DNA of 41,141 nt from contig JAJYXV010000009.1 in the NCBI GenBank assembly GCA_021801565.1, positions 1 through 41,141 of the forward strand, written 5' to 3'. Positions 23,741 to 31,688 of the stretch are shown here, one piece after another (within the stretch, counting starts at the first letter, position 1; every line of letters begins with the position of its first letter). The notes under the pieces were generated by a model, which worked only from the letters and a program-made list of their open reading frames with translations, searched no databases and was not told where the DNA came from. Source of the DNA: a bacterium (GTDB taxonomy: Bacteria; Patescibacteriota; Minisyncoccia; UBA6257; GWB1-50-10). The translations under genes were made by a program, and so were the position numbers.

Positions 23741-23961
23741 ACGAAAGACTAAAGACCCAAGGCTGAAGACAAAAGATAAAAAAAGAGAAGATTAAAAACA
23801 GGGAAAAAATTTTCTTGCAGTTTTCTCTTTTTTTTGCGAAAGTTAGAGATGTATTGCCCCGATAGTTTCCGCCCCAGGCGGACCAGCCTTGGGCTGGCAA
23901 TATCTGATGGAATATTCTTATTTTATCGTAGTGTGATGGTCAGCGTAGATTTAAGTACTAT

Positions 23962-24033
23962 GCCCCGATAGTTCAATGGATAGAACAGGGCTCTTCTAAG
24001 GCCTTAATGTGGGTTCGATTCCTACTCGGGGTA
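23962..24033 (+). tRNA. tRNA-Arg(TCT)
   Basis: GCCCCGA/TCGGGGT acceptor, GGGCT-CTTCTAA-GGCCT anticodon arm, GGTTCGATTCC T-arm. Confidence 0.93.
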
Positions 24034-24036
24034 CAA

Positions 24037-24077
24037 AAACAAATAACTCCGTACTAAAAGTACGGAGTTATTTGTTT
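24037..24077 (+). terminator. Terminator hairpin after tRNA-Arg
   Basis: aaacaaataactccgtact-aaa-agtacggagttatttgttt perfect stem. Confidence 0.8.
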
Positions 24078-24086
24078 ATTGATTTT

Positions 24087-24423
24087 GCAGGAATGGAAGG
24101 GAACCCGAATGCCTCCATTGGAGGATAAAGTGAGGGTCCCAGGCTTCGGAGGAATCCTGAGTGAAGTCGAAGGATGGGGGAGAAGGATTCCTACTCGGGG
24201 TACAAAAAACATAAACATCGCATTTTTGCGGTGTTTATGTTTTATCCCCGAAGTAAGTATATCTTGCGTGCGGAATCGAAGGACGTCCGCCTGCCGTCGG
24301 GCAGGGAGCGATGTGTATTTAGTAGAATACACTGTGAGTCCAGGCTCGAAACCTTTTTGAGCGACGGCGAAAAAAGAGTTGAGAGGGTTCCCTGTCTGCG
24401 CGGACAGGCTGCTCGTGGTACCA
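24087..24423. repeat. Two tandem tRNA-Arg 3'-end repeat units with structured cassettes
   Basis: gattcctactcggggtacaaaaa at 24186-24208 equals 24017-24039; degenerate copy at 24386-24423; inverted T-arm copies at 24087-24098 and about 24270-24280. Confidence 0.8.
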
Positions 24424-24492
24424 AATAGTTGCTTTTCTAGAATATTAGTGGTATGGTGTTTTCAGAAATTTCACTCATAAAAAGGAGGTGTT

Positions 24493-24726
24493 ATGGGAAC
24501 CATAACAGTGACCATTAATACTGAAATAAACGATCTTCTACAGAAACTTGCCTTAGAGAGCGAGAAAACAGACAAAGAACTAGTTGAGGAATTAATCAAA
24601 AAAGAAGATGAAAAAAGGCACGTAACAGTTGTTCCTTTTGAGGGAGAGAAAAGATTCAAATGTACATGCAAAAAGTGTTTTGAAACACAAACTAGATCAA
24701 CGGAGATTATTGAAGAGGGAAATTAA
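24493..24726 (+). CDS. Small hypothetical protein (ribbon-helix-helix-like N-terminus, CxCxxC)
   Basis: Strong SD aaggaggt; 77 aa; followed by a terminator hairpin. Confidence 0.6.
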   Translation: MGTITVTINTEINDLLQKLALESEKTDKELVEELIKKEDEKRHVTVVPFEGEKRFKCTCKKCFETQTRSTEIIEEGN

Positions 24727-24793
24727 AAAATAAAATACCCGGCGAATAAAAACGGGTATTTTTATTTCATACGCGGGTATTTATATGTGAAGC

Positions 24794-25564
24794 TTATTTT
24801 CTCATTCTGAAGAGACTTATAAGAAAGAAAAACGTGCTAATGAATACTGTCGCAACACCTGGATTAATTGAGCGAGTGAAGTATGAAACAATTATTCCTC
24901 CGAGAAGTGAAATAGTTGCAATACACATACTCCACCACACATACATTTTGAGATTTCTCGAAAGATTGCGTGCAGTAACAGCGGGAATAATAGAAAGAGC
25001 GCTCATAAGAAGTACCCCTACAAATCCGATACCGATAGAAATAGTGAGTGCAATAAGTACAAGGAGAAGAAGTTCTAATTTTGTCCGTGCTATTTTCTCC
25101 GAGTAGGTGAGGTCTGGAGCGATTGAGACGAGCATGAGTGATTTGAAGTTTTTTGCGACAATGCCAATGATACCGAGCGCAATAATTGTTTGAATAAGAA
25201 GCTGTATTGAGGAGATATTTTCAACACTTCCAAAGAATGCTTCAAGAAGATCGGTTTCGCTGATAAGTATTGATCCTATTGCAAGTGCGGTCACAAAAAG
25301 AACTCCAGTGATTGATTCGGTTGCCAGTTTGGTTTTATTTTCTATTCTCCAAATGAGAAGGATAGAAAGAAAAAGAAATATAAGCCCGCCGATAATCGGT
25401 TCAAATTTAAAAATGACTCCGAGCGCGATACCGGGAAGTGCAACATGAGAGAGCGCATCGCTCATGAGTGTCATTTTTTTAAGCACGAGGAATGAGCCAA
25501 TAAGCCCACTTGCAACAGCGACAAATGCCCCGGAGATGAGTGTGTAAATAAAATAATCAGTCAT
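24794..25564 (-). CDS. Zn/Mn ABC transporter permease (ZnuB/MntB family)
   Basis: DALSHVALPG and VGVLLMSALSIIPAVTAR motifs; polytopic membrane protein. Confidence 0.92.
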   Translation of the reverse strand: MTDYFIYTLISGAFVAVASGLIGSFLVLKKMTLMSDALSHVALPGIALGVIFKFEPIIGGLIFLFLSILLIWRIENKTKLATESITGVLFVTALAIGSILISETDLLEAFFGSVENISSIQLLIQTIIALGIIGIVAKNFKSLMLVSIAPDLTYSEKIARTKLELLLLVLIALTISIGIGFVGVLLMSALSIIPAVTARNLSRNLKMYVWWSMCIATISLLGGIIVSYFTRSINPGVATVFISTFFFLISLFRMRK

Positions 25565-25566
25565 AA

Positions 25567-26265
25567 TTAATGAGTATGATGAAATAATGTATGTGTGTCG
25601 AAAAGCTCTTTTATTTTTTGTTCGGTGAGTGCTTCATAGGGCGCTCCATAACAAAGCATTTTTTGGTTGAGGCAAAGCACTTGGTCCGCATAGCGATATA
25701 CGAGATTCAAATCATGCGAAACAATAATGAGCGCCACATGAAGTGTTTCTTGAAGCTCGTGAAGAAGCCGATAAATTGACTCTTGTCCTGCAATATCCAC
25801 GTTTTCCATTGGTTCATCAAAGAGAAGTATTTCTGGTTTGTCGAGAATTGCCCACGCAAGGAGTATTTTTTGTAATTGTCCGCTCGAAAGATGGGCAAGA
25901 TTTTTTTTGCGCCATCCTTTTTCTATTTTTATAAGAGAAAAGACTTCACTCAGCGAATATTTTGGATTTTTTTTAAGCGAAAGAAATTCTTCTATTGTCA
26001 TAGGGAGGTAATGATCCACCTGAAATCGTTGTGGGAGATATCCAACTTTTGTTTCGGGTGCCCATGTGATAGTTCCCGACGTCGGGATATTGATTCCTAC
26101 AAGAGTTTTCAAAAGCATTGATTTTCCCGATCCATTCGGACCGATGATCGCAAGCACTTCCTCAGGTTTTATTTCAAATGAAATATCGGTAAGAATCTTT
26201 TTCTCATCAATTATGAGAGATAGATTCTCTACTTTAAGTACTTGTTTTGTGTCTTTTTGTTCCAT
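25567..26265 (-). CDS. Zn/Mn ABC transporter ATP-binding protein (ZnuC family)
   Basis: GPNGSGKS, GYLPQ, LSSGQLQK, FDEP, VSHDL and a His-rich tail. Confidence 0.92.
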   Translation of the reverse strand: MEQKDTKQVLKVENLSLIIDEKKILTDISFEIKPEEVLAIIGPNGSGKSMLLKTLVGINIPTSGTITWAPETKVGYLPQRFQVDHYLPMTIEEFLSLKKNPKYSLSEVFSLIKIEKGWRKKNLAHLSSGQLQKILLAWAILDKPEILLFDEPMENVDIAGQESIYRLLHELQETLHVALIIVSHDLNLVYRYADQVLCLNQKMLCYGAPYEALTEQKIKELFDTHTLFHHTH

Positions 26266-26391
26266 AATTTATCCGTCTATGTTGGTTAAGTATAACATGT
26301 ATTGTTCTCTTAAATAAATTATCTCTTTTCATAATTGAAAAACGAAAATGTGTGTGGTATTCTCGAATATGAAGAAATTAACAATTGAAAT

Positions 26392-26463
26392 GCCGCGGTA
26401 GCTCAGTGGTAGAGCGCAGCCCTGAAGAGGCTGGCGTCGGGTGTTCGATTCACCCCCGCGGCA
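26392..26463 (+). tRNA. tRNA-Phe(GAA)
   Basis: GCCGCGG/CCGCGGC acceptor; CAGCC-CTGAAGA-GGCTG anticodon arm. Confidence 0.95.
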
Positions 26464-26552
26464 CATTCGACAAGCTCAGTGCGAGCACAAAAAAATCCGC
26501 CATTTGGCGGATTTTGTTTTGTCGGAGAGCACACAAACTGCTTTGTGTGCGT

Positions 26553-26715
26553 GGTGAATTGAACGCCGGAACGTTGTGCAACGAGCACGTTGCACCCGTG
26601 AGGCGGTGCCCAGACCAAATACGAGCGACGGCGAGTATTTGAGTCGCGGGCGATTCCCCGCCTGCGCAGATAGGATTCCCATGACACGTTCGACAGGCTC
26701 AATGCGGACACGAAA
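26553..26715. repeat. tRNA-Phe 3'-end repeat unit with structured cassette
   Basis: Inverted T-arm ggtgaattgaac at 26553-26564; degenerate direct copy of 26446-26491 at 26651-26715. Confidence 0.7.
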
Positions 26716-26797
26716 ACCCAGCCTATCCATGAATAGGCTGGGTTTTTAATTCGTATCATCCGCATAAATCGGTTACAATCAGCATATATCAGCGTCT

Positions 26798-27127
26798 ATG
26801 AACTTATTAAACAAAAAATGTGTGCCATGTGAAGGGGGAACAAAACCGATGACAAAAGAAGAATCGCAGAAATATCTTGCTGAAACGTTGGGGTGGAATA
26901 TGATCGAGGATGGGAAAAAGATTTCAAAAGAATTTGTATTTCCTGATTTTGTACGGGCAATAAAATTTATAAATAAAGTTGCTGAAATTGCCGAAGCGGA
27001 AGGGCATCATCCGGATCTCCATATTTTCTACAATAAAGTGCAAATCGAATTGTGGACACATGCGATTGGAGGACTTTCAGAAAATGACTTTATACTTGCA
27101 GCGAAGATAAATAATATAAGAAATTAG
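26798..27127 (+). CDS. Pterin-4-alpha-carbinolamine dehydratase
   Basis: KCVPCEGG, AEAEGHHPD and WTHAIGGLSENDFILAAKI motifs. Confidence 0.93.
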   Translation: MNLLNKKCVPCEGGTKPMTKEESQKYLAETLGWNMIEDGKKISKEFVFPDFVRAIKFINKVAEIAEAEGHHPDLHIFYNKVQIELWTHAIGGLSENDFILAAKINNIRN

Positions 27128-27194
27128 ACTTGTGTTTATAGACTGTTTTTATTAATCTGAGAATAGAAAATTAACTTTCAAAGGAGAAATAAAA

Positions 27195-28175
27195 ATGATA
27201 TTGAAAATAGGCAAGATAGCGAAATATCTTTTCGTTCTTGTTTTGTGTTTCACGCTTTTTTTGACGGTGGACACAAGAGTGGAGAACAGCAAACGGCATA
27301 GCGATATATATGCACAAATTGCGAATATTAAGTCACCCTTTACCGTTTCAGATTTTCCATATATTCCTGATACAGTCCATTTTTTTGGCGGACGCGTCCC
27401 TCTTGAAGTGTATGGAGTGTGGGAGGATATTGACGAGTGGATAAAATTTTTCACCAGTGCGAAAAATAGATGGAGAATAATTTCATACATAGGCACTCTA
27501 AAGGAATATTCGCCAATAGTTGATTCAATATTTAAAGAAGAGGAAGTGCCGATCGATATGAAATATGTAGGCATTGGAGAGTCAGGACTCAACTCAAATG
27601 CGACATCATCAAAAAGTGCAACGGGAGCATGGCAATTTATACGAAGTACCGCAATACGGAATGGATTGAAGGTGAATAGTAGCATTGATGAAAGACGACA
27701 GTTTGAATTAGCAACTCGTGCATCGTGTCGGGAAATGAAAAACCTTTATAGTGAATTTAGAAAGACATATAATGAAGAAGAGAGTTGGTGGTTTGCGCTT
27801 GCAAGTTATAATGCCGGTTCCGGAAGAATCTGGAGAGCGATAAAAATCGATGGGGAGAAATCGTATTTCAGATTATCTTCACTTCCCCGCGAGACGGAAC
27901 GATATATTCCCTGTATCATCGCTTTGAAGCTTATACTTGAAAATCCAGAACACTATGGGTTTGTAGAGGGAATAACGTATAGCGGACCCAAAGTGATCGT
28001 CATTGAAAAATATTTTTCGAAATTTACTCCATGGAAAACTTTCTTATCTGAATTACGGAATAGTGGATATGATATTTCGTTAAAAGAACTTACTCGAGCG
28101 AACACGCACATCAAGAATAAGAACGGGATTCCAAAAGGAACTTTTCTTCTGAGAATTCCTGATCGTCATAGGTAA
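27195..28175 (+). CDS. Lytic transglycosylase (SLT, MltD-like)
   Basis: GES, ATGAWQFI..TA...GL, ALASYNAG.GRI and LPRETERY motifs; N-terminal TM; possible degenerate LysM at the C-terminus. Confidence 0.88.
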   Translation: MILKIGKIAKYLFVLVLCFTLFLTVDTRVENSKRHSDIYAQIANIKSPFTVSDFPYIPDTVHFFGGRVPLEVYGVWEDIDEWIKFFTSAKNRWRIISYIGTLKEYSPIVDSIFKEEEVPIDMKYVGIGESGLNSNATSSKSATGAWQFIRSTAIRNGLKVNSSIDERRQFELATRASCREMKNLYSEFRKTYNEEESWWFALASYNAGSGRIWRAIKIDGEKSYFRLSSLPRETERYIPCIIALKLILENPEHYGFVEGITYSGPKVIVIEKYFSKFTPWKTFLSELRNSGYDISLKELTRANTHIKNKNGIPKGTFLLRIPDRHR

Positions 28176-28302
28176 CAAAAACCCCAGTGTAATATCTGGG
28201 GTTTTTATAATGGAAGTTTTAGAAATGTCTAGTATGGAGCGATCGCTCCATACTAGACATTTCTCTCTTGGTATTGCTCTTGGATTTAATGGATAATTAC
28301 TA

Positions 28303-28965
28303 TTATGGTTTCTCTTCAAATTTTTCTTCAATTGCTTCTCCGATAAATTCCGCCTTTTCTTCAACAGATGCATACTTCTTTAAAAATCTGCTTAAGAAGT
28401 GTTCTCCTATAAAAATAAGTATAAAAATCAATAAAATTCCGATTTCCACTTGTTTGAATACCTTTGTAGACCTTAGATAATGAAGCCCAGACATAAAGAA
28501 GTATGCTATGGCGGTCATACTAAAAAACCATATAAGGAGACTTTTTATATATGAAGGGAAAAAATCTTTGAATTTTGTTTTAGTCCAACCAATAAGACTG
28601 ATAATCATGAGATTTGTCGCGGGAATAAATTTTGTGACGATAAGCAGTTTTGTCATGTTCTGTTTGAGATAATATGTGTACGTTTGCACTTTTTTATTCC
28701 CTTTTATTTTTTTAGAGAGTCTCCATCCAAAGCGGGTATTGCGAATATTTTTTCCAACTAAATAAACAAAAACTTCTGCGAATGCAATTGCTCCAAGCGT
28801 TGGAACGATAAATTGTATCCACGTTATTTTCCCACTGACGGCAAGATACATAGAAAGGAGAATGGTAAGTTCTCCTTGAATAATCATACATATTCCTAAA
28901 ATTGCATCAGTCCATGTTGGATTTTGTGTGATCCATGAACCTGCAATTTCCATCAAATTGTTCAC
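28303..28965 (-). CDS. DedA/VTT-like membrane protein
   Basis: IQGE, YLVG, TKFIP and F.....L.W pattern. Start moved to GTG 28965 (TATAAT 6 nt upstream) to avoid overlap with arfB. Confidence 0.7.
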   Translation of the reverse strand: MNNLMEIAGSWITQNPTWTDAILGICMIIQGELTILLSMYLAVSGKITWIQFIVPTLGAIAFAEVFVYLVGKNIRNTRFGWRLSKKIKGNKKVQTYTYYLKQNMTKLLIVTKFIPATNLMIISLIGWTKTKFKDFFPSYIKSLLIWFFSMTAIAYFFMSGLHYLRSTKVFKQVEIGILLIFILIFIGEHFLSRFLKKYASVEEKAEFIGEAIEEKFEEKP

Positions 28966-29011
28966 AGGTTCATTATACCGTATAATTTTGATATTGGAAA
29001 TTTTCAAGAAT

Positions 29012-29434
29012 ATGTTTGTAAACGGAGAAAATATAAAAATAAAAACATCACGATCGAGTGGTCCCGGTGGACAAAACGTAAATAAGCGTTCAACGCGTGT
29101 ACAGGCATGGGTGAATATCAATGATTTAGATATCTCAGAAGCGAAAAAAAAGAAATTAAGAATTAAACTCGCACATAAAATAAATGAGAAAGACGAACTT
29201 GAAACGGAAAGCGATGAAGAAAGAGCACAAGAGCAAAATAAGGATCGGGCAATCGAAAAATTAAACGAGCTTATTGAAGACGCACTTCATGAAGACAAAC
29301 CTCGTATCCCCACGGGACCTCATCAAGGGTCGATAGAGGAGCGCCTTCATCATAAGCATCTTCGTTATCAAAAAAAGAAATCTCGAAGGGAGGCAAAAAG
29401 TGTTGGGGTTGAAGAACATCATAAAACGATTTAA
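29012..29434 (+). CDS. arfB: Alternative ribosome-rescue factor B (peptidyl-tRNA hydrolase YaeJ)
   Basis: SRSSGPGGQNVNKRST GGQ motif, R.Q.QN..RA and a basic C-terminal tail; start moved to 29012. Confidence 0.9.
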   Translation: MFVNGENIKIKTSRSSGPGGQNVNKRSTRVQAWVNINDLDISEAKKKKLRIKLAHKINEKDELETESDEERAQEQNKDRAIEKLNELIEDALHEDKPRIPTGPHQGSIEERLHHKHLRYQKKKSRREAKSVGVEEHHKTI

Positions 29435-29508
29435 TCTAATTACAGGGTTTTATATTTAGAAATTAGAATTTAAAATTTAGTAATTCCCCGCCTGGGGCGG
29501 GGTGGTAT

Positions 29509-29581
29509 GGTGCCTGTAGCTCAGTGGTAGAGCGCCCGCCTGTGGAGCGGGATGTCGCGGGTTCGACCCCCGTCAGGCACC
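29509..29581 (+). tRNA. tRNA-His(GTG)
   Basis: G-1 plus GTGCCTG/CAGGCAC and C73; CCCGC-CTGTGGA-GCGGG anticodon arm. Confidence 0.95.
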
Positions 29582-29586
29582 CTGGG

Positions 29587-29616
29587 AAAAACGATAGGTA
29601 AACCCTATCGTTTTTT
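29587..29616 (+). terminator. Terminator after tRNA-His
   Basis: aaaaacgatagg-taaac-cctatcgttttt hairpin. Confidence 0.75.
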
Positions 29617-29690
29617 GTACCCGTCAATCCGAAAGTTTACTGAAGGATGATGCCCTGACGAGAGGTTCGAACTAGGATATAATTATTTTC

Positions 29691-31400
29691 ATGAATGCAG
29701 AGATAAAAGTCTGCCAGAATTGCAAACAGAACTTCACGATTGAGAGTGAAGATTTTGATTTTTATAAAAAGATTAATGTGCCCGCACCAACATTTTGTTC
29801 TGAGTGTAGAATCGTAAGAAGAATGACGCGGAGAAATGAGCGGGCACTCTATAAACACATATGTAATTTGTGTAAAAAAGAAACTATTTCGATGTATGAA
29901 GAAAATTCTCCATATTCTGTATTCTGTGTAGAATGTTGGTGGTCCGATAAATGGGATTCATTATCTTTTGGAAAGAATTTTGATTTTTCTAAATCCTTTT
30001 TTGAGCAATTTAAGGAGTTGTCTCTTAGAGTTCCTCGTGCCGCACTGCTCCAAAAAGGAGATGTCGATAGTCCATATACGAATTTTACCGACCACAATAA
30101 AAATGGATATCTATTATTTAATTGTGGACTTTTAGAAGATTCTTTATATAGTCGCTGGGGGATTAGCTCAAAAAGCATTGTAGATACATTCAGCGTCTTT
30201 GATTCAGAGCTTATTTATGAATCTCAGGAATTGAAAAAATGTTATCGCGGAGTCTACCTCGTCTTATCCGAATCGTGTGTGGACTCGTCGTTTCTTTTTA
30301 ACTGTCATGGATGTCAGAGTTGTTTTCTTTCCTCTAATTTGAGAAATAAAAAATATTGTTTTAAAAATAAACAATATAGTAAAGAAAGTTATGAGGAATT
30401 AATATCAGAGATTGATTTAGGAAGTTATGATGTGTTTGAAAATATAAAGAAAGATTTTTTTACAAATATTATTCCCAGTTCTTCAAGAAAATATCTTATC
30501 GGAAATAAACTTACTGATTCTACAGGCGATTATTTATTTGAATGTAAAAATGTAAAAAAATCGTTCCATGTTTCTGAATCCGAGGATAGTATATATTGTA
30601 CTGATTGTGCAAACTTGAAGAATTGTGCAGATGCATACGAATCAGCTTTTAATTGTGAGCTTCAGTACGAATGTCATGGGTGTAATAGAACGTCGCGTTC
30701 GAAATTTACAAGTTCATCATATGATGATTTTGACCTCGAATTTAGTGAGTTTTCTCATAATTCTCACAATCTTCTTGGTTGTATCGGACTTCGCAATAAG
30801 CAGTACTGTATTTTCAATAAACAATACACAAAAGAGGAATATGAAGAATTGGTACCAAAGATAATCAAACATATGTCTGATATGCCCTACATCGACCAGA
30901 AGGGCAGAATCTATACATACGGCGAATTCTTTCCTTCAGAATTGTCTCCATTTGCATACAACGAGACTATTGCTCAGGAATACTTTCCCCTTACCAAAGA
31001 ACAAGCACTTGCACAAGGATATCGATGGAAAGATTTAGATACAAAAAATTATAAACCAACAATATTTTTAAACAATCTTCCAGACCATATCAAAAATGTG
31101 CCTGATTCAATTACAAATGAAGTCATTCAGTGTGCTCATATCTCTTGCACTCATCAATGCACCACTGCATTTAAAATCATTCCCCAAGAGCTTGAGTTTT
31201 ATCGAAGAATGAACCTCCCCCTTCCGCGACTTTGTCCCAACTGTAGACATTACGAGCGCCTAGCGCAACGAAACCCGATGAAACTTTGGCACCGAAAATG
31301 TATGAAGGAAGGATGTAAAAACGAATTCGAAACCTCCTATTCTCCAGACAGAAAAGAAATTGTTTACTGTGAATCATGCTATCAAGCTGAGGTGGTATAG
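29691..31400 (+). CDS. Cys-rich multi-zinc-ribbon protein of the CPR-typical family (CQNCK..F.I ... YCE.CY..EV)
   Basis: 569 aa with many CxxC motifs and a central beta-helix-like Cys/Ser repeat region; leaderless promoter. Confidence 0.8.
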   Translation: MNAEIKVCQNCKQNFTIESEDFDFYKKINVPAPTFCSECRIVRRMTRRNERALYKHICNLCKKETISMYEENSPYSVFCVECWWSDKWDSLSFGKNFDFSKSFFEQFKELSLRVPRAALLQKGDVDSPYTNFTDHNKNGYLLFNCGLLEDSLYSRWGISSKSIVDTFSVFDSELIYESQELKKCYRGVYLVLSESCVDSSFLFNCHGCQSCFLSSNLRNKKYCFKNKQYSKESYEELISEIDLGSYDVFENIKKDFFTNIIPSSSRKYLIGNKLTDSTGDYLFECKNVKKSFHVSESEDSIYCTDCANLKNCADAYESAFNCELQYECHGCNRTSRSKFTSSSYDDFDLEFSEFSHNSHNLLGCIGLRNKQYCIFNKQYTKEEYEELVPKIIKHMSDMPYIDQKGRIYTYGEFFPSELSPFAYNETIAQEYFPLTKEQALAQGYRWKDLDTKNYKPTIFLNNLPDHIKNVPDSITNEVIQCAHISCTHQCTTAFKIIPQELEFYRRMNLPLPRLCPNCRHYERLAQRNPMKLWHRKCMKEGCKNEFETSYSPDRKEIVYCESCYQAEVV

Positions 31401-31490
31401 ATTCTAGTTCCAACATCCTCCACTATGGCACCCACATTTATAAAAACTTCCATTTACTGGAGGTTTTTTGTAAATATGAAATGTTCGTTT

Positions 31491-31617
31491 GGGGGTCGAA
31501 CGGAATCCCGCCGCCATTGGTTCAAGGCGGGATCCGTGGCTTCGGAGCCTGCCTGCGCAGGCAGGGAATCCTGAGCGAAGTTGAAGGATGGAGGAGAAGG
31601 ACCCCCGTCAGGCACCC
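31491..31617. repeat. tRNA-His 3'-end repeat unit (att-like 18-bp direct repeat plus cassette)
   Basis: gacccccgtcaggcaccc at 31600-31617 equals 29565-29582; inverted T-arm gggggtcgaac at 31491-31501. Confidence 0.85.
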
Positions 31618-31688
31618 AATGAAAAATCCTAGATAAACTCTAGGATTTTTGTGTATCAAAAAGGGAGAGTAGAAGATTATCATAACAT

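Follow-up and report, generated by a model that had tools for sequence, protein, structure and literature searches.

The stretch of DNA analysed here, referred to as the window, comprises positions 1 to 41,141 (41,141 nucleotides, nt) of contig JAJYXV010000009.1 from assembly GCA_021801565.1, a bacterium of the lineage Patescibacteriota; Minisyncoccia; UBA6257; GWB1-50-10. The genome to which it belongs (G000) has a size of 742 kb in 16 contigs, a G+C content of 38 % and a completeness of 98.7 %; the organism is present at mine-drainage, sediment and groundwater sites. Between 24 and 31 kb of the window, genes for the transfer RNAs (tRNAs) tRNA-Arg, tRNA-Phe and tRNA-His are followed by short units in which a structured core of one of two kinds, cassette A or cassette B, is enclosed by an inverted and a direct copy of parts of the local tRNA gene. 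These cassettes are the cores of a small repeat family without open reading frames (ORFs) that is specific to tRNA and transfer-messenger RNA (tmRNA) genes in Patescibacteria of the Minisyncoccia type. A preliminary description, made from the letters of the sequence, had reported 3'-end copies and shared cassettes at the three tRNAs, and these proved to be real and far above chance; exact repeats of 23 and 18 nt were found, and both cassettes were scored with covariance models, R1 for cassette A and R2 for cassette B. The inverted copy of the local T-arm that it had placed ahead of each cassette, here called invT, was likewise recovered in the window.

All features of the units lie on the forward strand. 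The tRNA-Arg(tct) gene (23962-24034; ARAGORN; Rfam tRNA model, 63.8 bits) is the anchor gene for two units, Arg-A and Arg-B. It is followed by a first hairpin or terminator with a 19-bp stem (24037-24077), which lies within the inserted segment and is missing from the empty site of the congener G003. Behind it are the invT of Arg-A (24087-24098), which is antisense to positions 54-65 of tRNA-Arg with two mismatches in the window's genome, and the cassette A core (24099-24185; R1, 109.7 bits), for which the consensus fold and covariation give a three-way junction of the helices P2, P3 and P4. The direct copy (24186-24208) runs from T-loop position 57 to the 3' end of the tRNA plus 5 nt and is an exact 23-nt repeat of 24017-24039. 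The second hairpin or terminator (24206-24243), an inverted repeat, is the ortholog of the native tRNA-Arg terminator of G003 in an alignment by eye. The Arg-B unit consists of an invT with a 9-nt inverted match (24270-24280), a cassette B core with a GC hairpin inserted near its 5' end (24281-24385; R2, 96.2 bits) and a degenerate copy of the tRNA from the T-arm to the 3' end (24386-24423), which is split by an 18-nt palindrome (24391-24408). Arg-B shares an 87-nt stretch, at 89-94 % identity, with B units that congeners carry behind tRNA-Gly or tRNA-Pro. Strain variants were found at this locus as well: a compensatory pair of changes, A>C and T>G, at 24045 and 24069 in the first hairpin, and a change G>C at 24095 that restores the T-loop complement in the invT of Arg-A. 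In the congener G002, the orthologous invT is a perfect 13-nt reverse complement.

The tRNA-Phe(gaa) gene (26392-26464; ARAGORN, Rfam) is followed by its terminator (26492-26515), a hairpin H0 (26529-26550) that was read from the sequence and adjoins the invT on its upstream side, as in other B units, the invT of Phe-B (26553-26563; two mismatches to positions 54-65) and a cassette B core (26564-26651; R2, 104.7 bits). The segment behind this core (26652-26746) holds a degenerate copy of the tRNA-Phe 3' end, into which a palindrome (26657-26674) is set, as well as a diverged repeat of the trailer of this tRNA and a hairpin of the terminator type (26713-26746). The third anchor gene is tRNA-His(gtg) (29510-29582; ARAGORN, Rfam). 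Its unit comprises an invT (31490-31500; R1 alignment), a cassette A core into which an 18-nt palindrome (31548-31565) is inserted (31501-31599; R1, 95.9 bits), and a direct copy from position 57, exact over 18 nt, that continues into a diverged terminator copy (31600-31650). The 3' end of the tRNA-His gene at 29565-29582 thus recurs exactly at 31600-31617, and the similarity including the terminator covers 51 nt at 78 %. The A cassettes of Arg and His share a 37-nt stretch with 92 % identity. Direct copies had been described for all of these units; they are exact behind Arg-A and His-A, and behind Arg-B and Phe-B they are degenerate and cut by 18-nt GC palindromes.

The layout at tRNA-His needs a correction in one respect. 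Cassette A and the copy are present, but they lie 1.9 kb downstream, beyond an ORF of 569 amino acids (29691-31400), and not directly behind the tRNA. This ORF is contained in a strain-variable insertion of 1851 nt (29576-31426) outside the element proper. A contig from another study joins 29575 directly to 31427 and skips these 1851 nt, with seven letters that fit both sides, a 7-nt repeat of the tRNA-His end. In the strain without this piece, tRNA-His, terminator, invT, cassette A and copy follow each other at the usual spacing, so the His unit is a canonical one with a later insertion. In another sequencing run, a contig leads from the end of the 1851-nt unit back into its beginning, a sign of a tandem arrangement or a circle. 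The cysteine-rich ORF matches no Pfam family, is named only as a hypothetical zinc-binding protein in the Atlas and gave a poor AlphaFold model (predicted local distance difference test score, pLDDT, 67.5). It belongs to a family of paralogs, often in tandem arrays, that numbers 12 matches in the genome of the window and as many as 28 per genome in relatives. This family occurs in 20 of 61 genomes, and its presence does not track the cassettes. The ORF was therefore rejected as the enzyme of the unit, as its gene is also missing from the strain that retains the cassette.

The anatomy of the units was compared across copies from the window, three congeners and one other genus. A and B form two related families with cores of about 90-100 nt, and the whole unit, which contains no ORF, spans about 120-170 nt. 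Each unit starts with a hairpin, often the terminator of the tRNA, followed by the 12-nt invT, the core and the copy of the tRNA from position 57. The invT is the antisense of the T-loop and of the 3' strand of the T-stem of the local tRNA. In all A and B units examined, it spans positions 54-65 and the copy begins at T-loop position 57, often extending through the trailer and the terminator of the tRNA. In the single-stranded form, the invT pairs with positions 57-65 of the copy, and the closing helix has the sequence of the tRNA-gene duplex at the junction. The consensus fold of five A copies, calculated with RNAalifold, consists of three helices. P1 is the closing helix between the invT and positions 57-65 of the copy, P2 is a long variable hairpin on a conserved base, and P3 is a 4-bp helix that abuts position 57 without a linker and encloses purine-rich loops and a variable hairpin, P4. 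The plan of cassette B is identical to that of A. The last base of the core is variable, and the bases at the junction do not show ribozyme-like conservation. Some B units of the genome G027 (L148, L144 1491-1608 and L154) have closing arms of GTTTTG / CAAAAC that are not derived from a tRNA; these units were observed in arrays or nested within other B units, each behind a conserved 13-nt leader.

The large covariation margin is strong evidence that the A and B folds are under constraint. In cassette A, 92.0 % of the cells were paired in comparison to 71.1 % after shuffling, with none of 500 shuffles reaching the observed value and slid controls at 36-62 %, and 19 of 23 pairs had changed on both sides. 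In cassette B, 91.3 % of the cells were paired in comparison to 58.3 % (slid controls 37-49 %), and both sides had changed in 28 of 29 pairs. The alignments used for this comparison were fitted to the models, which favours structure, but the margin is still large. Since single-sequence folding of cassette A gave only modest z-scores of -1.5 and -2.4, the case for structure rests on covariation. G-U combinations are about as frequent as A-C combinations in the helices, with 14 vs. 17 of 689 cells in cassette A, and 34 vs. 24 of 1055 and 22 vs. 22 of 723 cells in cassette B. The tRNAs of the window's genome contain 61 G-U and no A-C among 978 bracketed pairs, a count in which ARAGORN may bracket allowed pairs only. 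That G-U does not exceed A-C hints at the retention of plain Watson-Crick complementarity, as in DNA, or else at the decay of many copies.

The distribution of the cassettes was determined by searching R1 and R2 in 101 related genomes. Cassette A was detected in 27 of them, including 24 of 60 of the same family, with 1-11 copies per genome, and cassette B in 32, with up to 18 copies. At least one of the two is present in 42 genomes and both in 17, and the copy number varies patchily from 0 to 18 among close relatives. In a further sample of 150 genomes from across the phylum, four contain cassette B, again behind tRNAs. Nearly all hits lie behind a tRNA or tmRNA gene and have flanks that match the local tRNA. 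In 29 fetched loci, R1 gave 31 hits, of which 26 have a same-strand tRNA upstream according to ARAGORN, mostly at a distance of 41-56 nt; 20 of these 26 share at least 15 identical nt from position 57 and 19 have an inverted match of at least 9 nt. The other five hits comprise two behind tmRNA, one behind a tRNA-Phe missed by ARAGORN, the His unit of the window and one at a contig start. For cassette B, a same-strand tRNA or tmRNA was found by ARAGORN upstream of 30 of 38 hits in the fetched loci; the misses are mostly truncated loci, members of arrays or cases with an intron-bearing tRNA-Phe, and one lies where no tRNA was found. In two tRNA-Phe genes of relatives, both missed by ARAGORN (L181, G088:C3, and L076, G006:C1), an insertion of about 250 nt was observed after the anticodon-stem region, which is probably a group I intron.

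The association with tRNA and tmRNA genes is far above chance. The anchors observed are tRNAs for Arg, Asn, Cys, Gln, Glu, Gly, His, Ile, Leu, Lys, Met, Phe, Pro, Ser, Thr, Tyr and Val as well as tmRNA. The proposal that one cassette is joined to differing, locus-specific tRNA sequences thus extends to 15 or more types of tRNA, and to tmRNA, across dozens of genomes. The units are consistently on the strand of the tRNA and usually end with a terminator, and the distance from tRNA to invT is 41-85 nt in most loci. The cassettes were not found to occur independently of tRNA fragments, nor did they match the ends of an integrase-bearing island family. Within the window's genome, a third B unit lies outside the window behind tRNA-Gly(gcc), and 4 of 45 tRNAs have an inverted T-arm match downstream, all four with a cassette. 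A third type of cassette was observed in the same genome, likewise beyond the window, behind tRNA-Leu(gag) (G000:C8, 72266-72460), with a terminator, an invT with two mismatches, a different core and a tRNA copy that begins at about position 53 and contains a small palindrome. Public records with matches to exact patterns are labelled Patescibacteria group, Minisyncoccia, Candidatus Jorgensenbacteria and Candidatus Brennerbacteria, and about half of the 25 exact-pattern matches lie in unrelated phyla, as expected by chance for an 18-mer. The 18-nt sequence CCTGAGYGAAGTYGAAGG inside cassette A turned out to be a generic hairpin motif that is common in relatives, so that it does not distinguish this cassette. 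The motif CCTGAGYGAAGTYGAAGGATGG was discarded as a probe for cassette A, as it matched a widespread generic hairpin instead.

Comparisons of orthologous and paralogous sites show that the module has multiple copies and a patchy, polymorphic occurrence, and that it has been exchanged among tRNA types. Three states were found for the tRNA-Arg(tct) site among orthologs: an empty one in G003 with only the tRNA and its terminator, one with A alone in G002, and one with A and B in the window. The terminator behind the Arg-A copy is the ortholog of the native one of G003, from which it follows that the inserted block consists of the tRNA part between position 57 and the end of the gene, followed by a new hairpin, the invT and the core, or an equivalent shifted frame. 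G027 carries B cores behind both tRNA-Pro(cgg) and tRNA-Pro(tgg) that agree at 84 of 86 positions, whereas the invT (8/11) and the copy (15/18) differ, each fitting its own tRNA. In the 3' half of cassette A, the unit on tRNA-Arg in G002 and that on tRNA-Gln in G003 are identical at 39 of 41 positions, as opposed to 36 of 45 for the positional orthologs on tRNA-Arg in G002 and G000. Recent exact duplications from position 57 to 20-55 nt past the tRNA are present at 7 of 42 anchored loci, exact tandem units of 163 nt exist, and A and B occur in tandem in either order. At one tRNA-Ile with TCC for TTC at positions 54-56, the junction reads GGA and not GAA, though the copy provides no partner for these bases. 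This single case suggests that the invT may be copied from, or may have to fit, the intact T-loop, beyond the downstream copy.

Several other small repeats were observed. In the AT-rich genome of the window, many sites carry an inserted 18-nt palindrome rich in GC (CCTGCCTGCGCAGGCAGG or a variant of it), among them 24391-24408, 26657-26674 and 31548-31565 of the window, G000:C3 35002 and 42316 and G000:C8 118792; such insertions lie in the T-loops of tRNA copies, in cassette A and in a pseudo-tRNA, among other places. Some tRNA genes are directly followed by a conserved trailer (TTCGACAAGCTCAGTG.GA.CAC; window 26465-26488 and 26688-26712; G000:C12 behind tRNA-Leu(taa)), and a hairpin resembling its complement, with the loop GAGCGAAGTCGA, is scattered in relatives, sometimes in tandem. 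Two tRNA-end duplications were seen on the reverse strand. At tRNA-Gln(ttg), a tandem pseudo-copy extends from the D-loop as far as the 3' end and carries the 18-nt palindrome in its D-arm (G000:C8, 118730-118842). At tRNA-Gly(tcc), the 35 nt between the anticodon stem and the 3' end are repeated directly, 20 nt downstream of the gene and without a cassette (G000:C12, 141922-141976).

The search for an associated enzyme and for known families gave mostly negative results. As had been stated before, no integrase lies within the units, which contain no ORF of any kind, and the single tyrosine recombinase of the genome is Xer-like and located elsewhere; PF00589 has one match in the window's genome, on another contig, and one each in G004, G010 and G027. 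This Xer-like gene (G000:C12, 65135-65944) was observed tail-to-tail beside tRNA-Leu(tag) in two genera, with a B unit between them in G010 (C17). Among the carriers of cassettes, G004, G016, G026 and G027, with a completeness of 98-100 %, gave no match to Y1 transposases (PF01797). The window's genome has a single IS200-like Y1 transposase gene of 142 amino acids on the reverse strand (G000:C8, 146490-146852), with hairpins with similar feet on both flanks. Reverse transcriptases gave no match in the window's genome and are missing from 21 of 42 carriers, including G072 with 10 copies. The DEDD recombinase of IS110 (PF01548) had no match in the window's genome, to which this search was limited, and the Nop domain (PF01798) had none in the 101 genomes. 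Y1 transposases, reverse transcriptases, IS110 recombinases, Nop/Tas proteins and extra tyrosine recombinases were thus all rejected as candidates, since none tracks the elements. Neither an ORF-bearing relative of the cassettes, among 69 hits examined, nor gene cassettes between units were found. At the gathering threshold of Rfam 15, tRNAs alone match in the window, and a permissive scan of 23900-24500 gave nothing near a gathering score over the cassettes and only weak, unrelated ylbH and rimP leaders over the terminator. A comparison of the junction by eye with the hammerhead consensus was also negative. Viral contigs gave no hits to the B pattern and 10 hits to the A pattern, none of them confirmed by the model or near a tRNA. 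No sigma-70-like promoter precedes any cassette in the window, and strong hairpins lie upstream. No RNA sequencing run was found to contain the locus. The literature consulted contains no description of such elements, with lists of RNA motifs that are confined to supplements outside its scope; among the Rfam families and described elements that could be found, none matches the cassettes.

The explanation favoured here, with a probability of roughly 0.4, is that A and B belong to a non-autonomous element that is propagated by recombination, is aimed at the tRNA T-loop and acts as a folded single-stranded nucleic acid. The unit would spread as DNA through recombination with tRNA genes. The full tRNA on its left and the 57-76 copy on its right would form homology arms to one contiguous and highly conserved target, which could allow movement between genomes at the same tRNA without a recombinase of its own. 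The folded core with its target-mimicking helix may be the place where strand exchange or copying is set at the boundary between positions 56 and 57. A templated process, either copying or palindrome correction, would keep the invT in agreement with the local tRNA, as opposed to slow point mutation, and the enzymes would be host functions or a factor acting in trans. This explanation draws on the uniform architecture and junction of the units, their constrained fold, their patchy occurrence in multiple copies, the filled and empty states of the tRNA-Arg site, the similar cores on different tRNAs, the recent exact duplications, the single case in which the invT follows the intact tRNA, the DNA-like pairing, the lack of promoter-like sites and the restriction of the invT to cassette-bearing tRNAs in the window's genome. 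In a bolder form of this proposal, which is rather doubtful, the core and the invT would be a self-targeting device capable of protein-independent, reprogrammable homing to the T-loop, which would make the most conserved sequence of the genome its target, with the guide rewritten from each new site. Here, the closing helix would copy the T-arm duplex and carry single-stranded extensions of 3 nt (54-56) on one strand and 11 nt (66-76) on the other. As folded single-stranded DNA or RNA, it might capture both strands of the T-loop of any tRNA gene, and insertion and copying would be directed at the 56/57 boundary, with no enzymes other than those of the host or through catalysis by the device itself. 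The greatest uncertainty concerns the choice between DNA and RNA as the active form. The preliminary description had considered an undescribed tRNA-targeted element or a fold-back copying mechanism. This view is supported in part: its locus-specific joining, the lack of an integrase and, among the elements that could be found, the lack of a described counterpart are borne out, whereas fold-back copying and RNA products stay conjectural.

A number of observations weigh against a recombination-propagated element. The empty site of G003 could reflect loss via recombination between direct repeats rather than the ancestral state, and gene conversion among old units, as opposed to transposition, could have produced the near-identical cores on two tRNAs. 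No excised circle or fresh insertion was seen, and precursor sites without a cassette, with an invT joined straight to the copy or a solitary invT behind a tRNA, were found neither in the window's genome nor in the fetched loci. No enzyme was identified either, as the four genomes checked each have a single Xer-like tyrosine recombinase, Y1 transposases (PF01797) occur in 19 of 42 cassette-bearing genomes in comparison to 42 of 101 overall, and reverse transcriptases in 21 of 42 in comparison to 40 of 101; each is thus found in about half of the carriers, much as in genomes without cassettes. Insertion through homology arms would account for spreading within a given tRNA type, but gives no reason why a unit could first reach another type without breaking that tRNA. 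The argument from G-U and A-C pairs is weakened by the model-fitted alignments and by copies that are possibly decaying. Finally, unpaired purine stretches (GGAGGA and GGGGGAGAAG) are conserved on the sense strand and resemble recognition motifs of RNA or single strands.

This last point leads to the main rival, which is less likely than the recombination-propagated element but deserves serious consideration: the unit may be a structured RNA made by read-through from the tRNA promoter, that is, a 3' external-spacer RNA specific to its own tRNA. The pairing partner of its invT would be the T-arm, either in the tRNA or in the pre-tRNA, and its tail would mimic the 3' strand, so that the RNA could act as a decoy, a guide, or a processing or quality-control module. 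Functional small RNAs from tRNA 3' spacers are a known theme, and the strong covariation fits a single-strand fold. The conservation of purine-rich internal loops on the sense strand only, the constant position on the tRNA strand with a usual terminator at the end, and the inclusion of positions 54-56 in the invT, which can pair solely with an intact tRNA, fit an RNA as well. However, a strong terminator usually lies between tRNA and unit, no promoter-like site precedes the cassettes, and G-U is no commoner than A-C, unlike in the tRNAs of the genome. A patchy distribution of 0 to 18 copies among close relatives and the many units with broken tRNA copies or inserted palindromes are likewise difficult to reconcile with such an RNA. 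An origin through RNA is improbable in comparison. According to this explanation, a core that is or was ribozyme-like, guided by an invT across the 56/57 boundary, would join the 3' part of the pre-tRNA, from position 57 to the transcript end, and the chimera would be copied back to DNA behind the gene. It would account for an invT that is the reverse complement across the junction, as a group I intron guide is to its ligated exons, for the exact placement of the 56/57 junction at the three-way junction, and for duplications that start at 57 and in several exact cases end within about 8-10 nt after a terminator hairpin, the place at which transcription stops. Some duplications reach into the following hairpin and do not stop at a transcript end, though, and the rewriting of the invT for a new tRNA is left unexplained. 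Moreover, the missing reverse transcriptase in the window's genome and in half of the carriers (21/42), the absence of an Rfam ribozyme match, and a last core base and junction bases without the conservation of known ribozymes speak against it.

Two explanations without an active element fit poorly. The units could be passive by-products without function or mobility, with tRNA 3' ends as recombination hot spots and hairpin debris that is homogenised by gene conversion. The cassette-free duplications at tRNA-Gly(tcc) (35 nt) and tRNA-Gln in the same genome, the 7-nt repeat around the 1851-nt insertion and the small GC palindromes inserted at many sites are what such processes would leave behind. 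Debris would hardly show sequence and fold conservation of A and B across families, and of B even across classes, an exact junction at 57 with a matched invT in nearly every unit, and compensatory changes in 19 of 23 and 28 of 29 pairs, so this explanation is unlikely. The least probable one is that the units are scars of deleted islands or phages whose tyrosine integrases act in the T-loop, consisting of attL/attR remnants and an attP arm. A direct repeat made of a displaced 3' fragment of the tRNA is the hallmark of islands in tRNA genes in the accessible text of PMC4383910, and the T-loop is a crossover site in that of PMC1762012. Yet the uniform size and the folded core abutting the copy are not expected from random deletions, no integrase lies in or beside the units in genomes that have one Xer-like gene in each of four cases, and the two patterns gave no true matches in viral contigs. 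In addition, the copy starts at 57 and omits positions 54-56, which leaves the 7-nt segment that usually serves for crossover without a shared counterpart.

If the units are mobile, an element without a gene uses the universal and almost invariant tRNA genes as insertion sites and leaves each tRNA intact. This would require re-aiming at more than 15 different tRNAs, an ability without precedent among the small repeats and tRNA-gene islands described so far. If they are RNAs, they constitute a tRNA-specific structured RNA family in bacteria with poorly known tRNA biology. The units account for much of the tRNA-fragment debris in these genomes, and island finders that rely on displaced tRNA fragments as island ends will be misled by them. 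The two covariance models can be used on all candidate-phyla genomes.

In comparison to known systems, the finding fits none of the families tested and is not explained by them. No covariance model of Rfam 15, including those of ribozymes and tRNA-like RNAs, matches the cassettes. The internal guide sequence of group I introns is similar in that a 5' segment is the reverse complement of the target over the insertion junction. The units have no P3-P9 core, conserved terminal G, U-G junction pair or Rfam match, however, their upstream 'exon' is not adjacent, and their core of about 90 nt has three helices and a variable last base. The DEDD recombinase that defines IS110 bridge-RNA and seekRNA systems was not found in the window's genome. 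IS200/IS605 elements share hairpin-rich ends, target recognition by internal complementarity, action on one strand and insertion just 3' of a fixed short motif, which in the units would be ...TTC at positions 54-56. They differ in that the guide of the units has 12 nt instead of 4 and the 3' part of the target is duplicated, and the Y1 HUH transposase expected for IS200/IS605 or REP-RAYT systems is present in only 19 of 42 carriers. TIGR-Tas systems, as far as described in the accessible text of PMC12045711, use 36-nt RNAs with two non-overlapping 9-nt spacers, encoded in long arrays beside a Nop-domain protein. They are similar in that one short nucleic acid has segments matching both target strands and in their occurrence in candidate phyla radiation bacteria and in the phages of these bacteria (PMC12045711). 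In the units, by contrast, the segments overlap and pair together, the core has about 90 nt, and none of the 101 genomes has a Nop-domain match. [quoted passage not shown] Unlike MITEs, they have no terminal inverted repeats of their own, since the inverted pair is derived from the target and differs at each tRNA, and their duplication has no fixed length (20-75 nt; 20 to 20+55). They are strictly tied to one class of target genes with flanks rewritten to match, and no parent insertion sequence or transposase-bearing autonomous relative was found; the sole case of cargo is the unrelated gene of the paralog family that is missing in the strain variant.

Parallels also exist to recombination sites that act as folded single strands, such as the attC sites of integrons and the attP hairpin of CTX phage. 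Like the units, these comprise about 60-140 nt, conserve structure above sequence and have paired arms that rebuild a target-like duplex, and in both the arm portion beyond the crossover derives from the target. The units lack an IntI-type integrase, gene cassettes and the R-box consensus (RYYYAAC / GTTRRRY) of attC sites, and differ from them in tRNA-specific arms and a core formed by a three-way junction with conserved unpaired purines. Islands in tRNA and tmRNA genes also leave the gene intact and carry the displaced 3' fragment as a direct repeat at their far end, and the T-loop is among the crossover places of their tyrosine integrases, according to the accessible text of PMC4383910 and PMC1762012, respectively. 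The units share the target, the intact gene and the displaced direct repeat (23 nt and 18 nt, exact). They differ in having no integrase or ORF, in a size of merely 120-170 nt, and in a repeat that starts at 57, with positions 54-56 replaced by the end of the core, so that identity over the whole crossover is not given. What sets them apart from such islands is that they carry an antisense copy of the target together with a conserved folded core, and that one core family serves at least 15 tRNA types.

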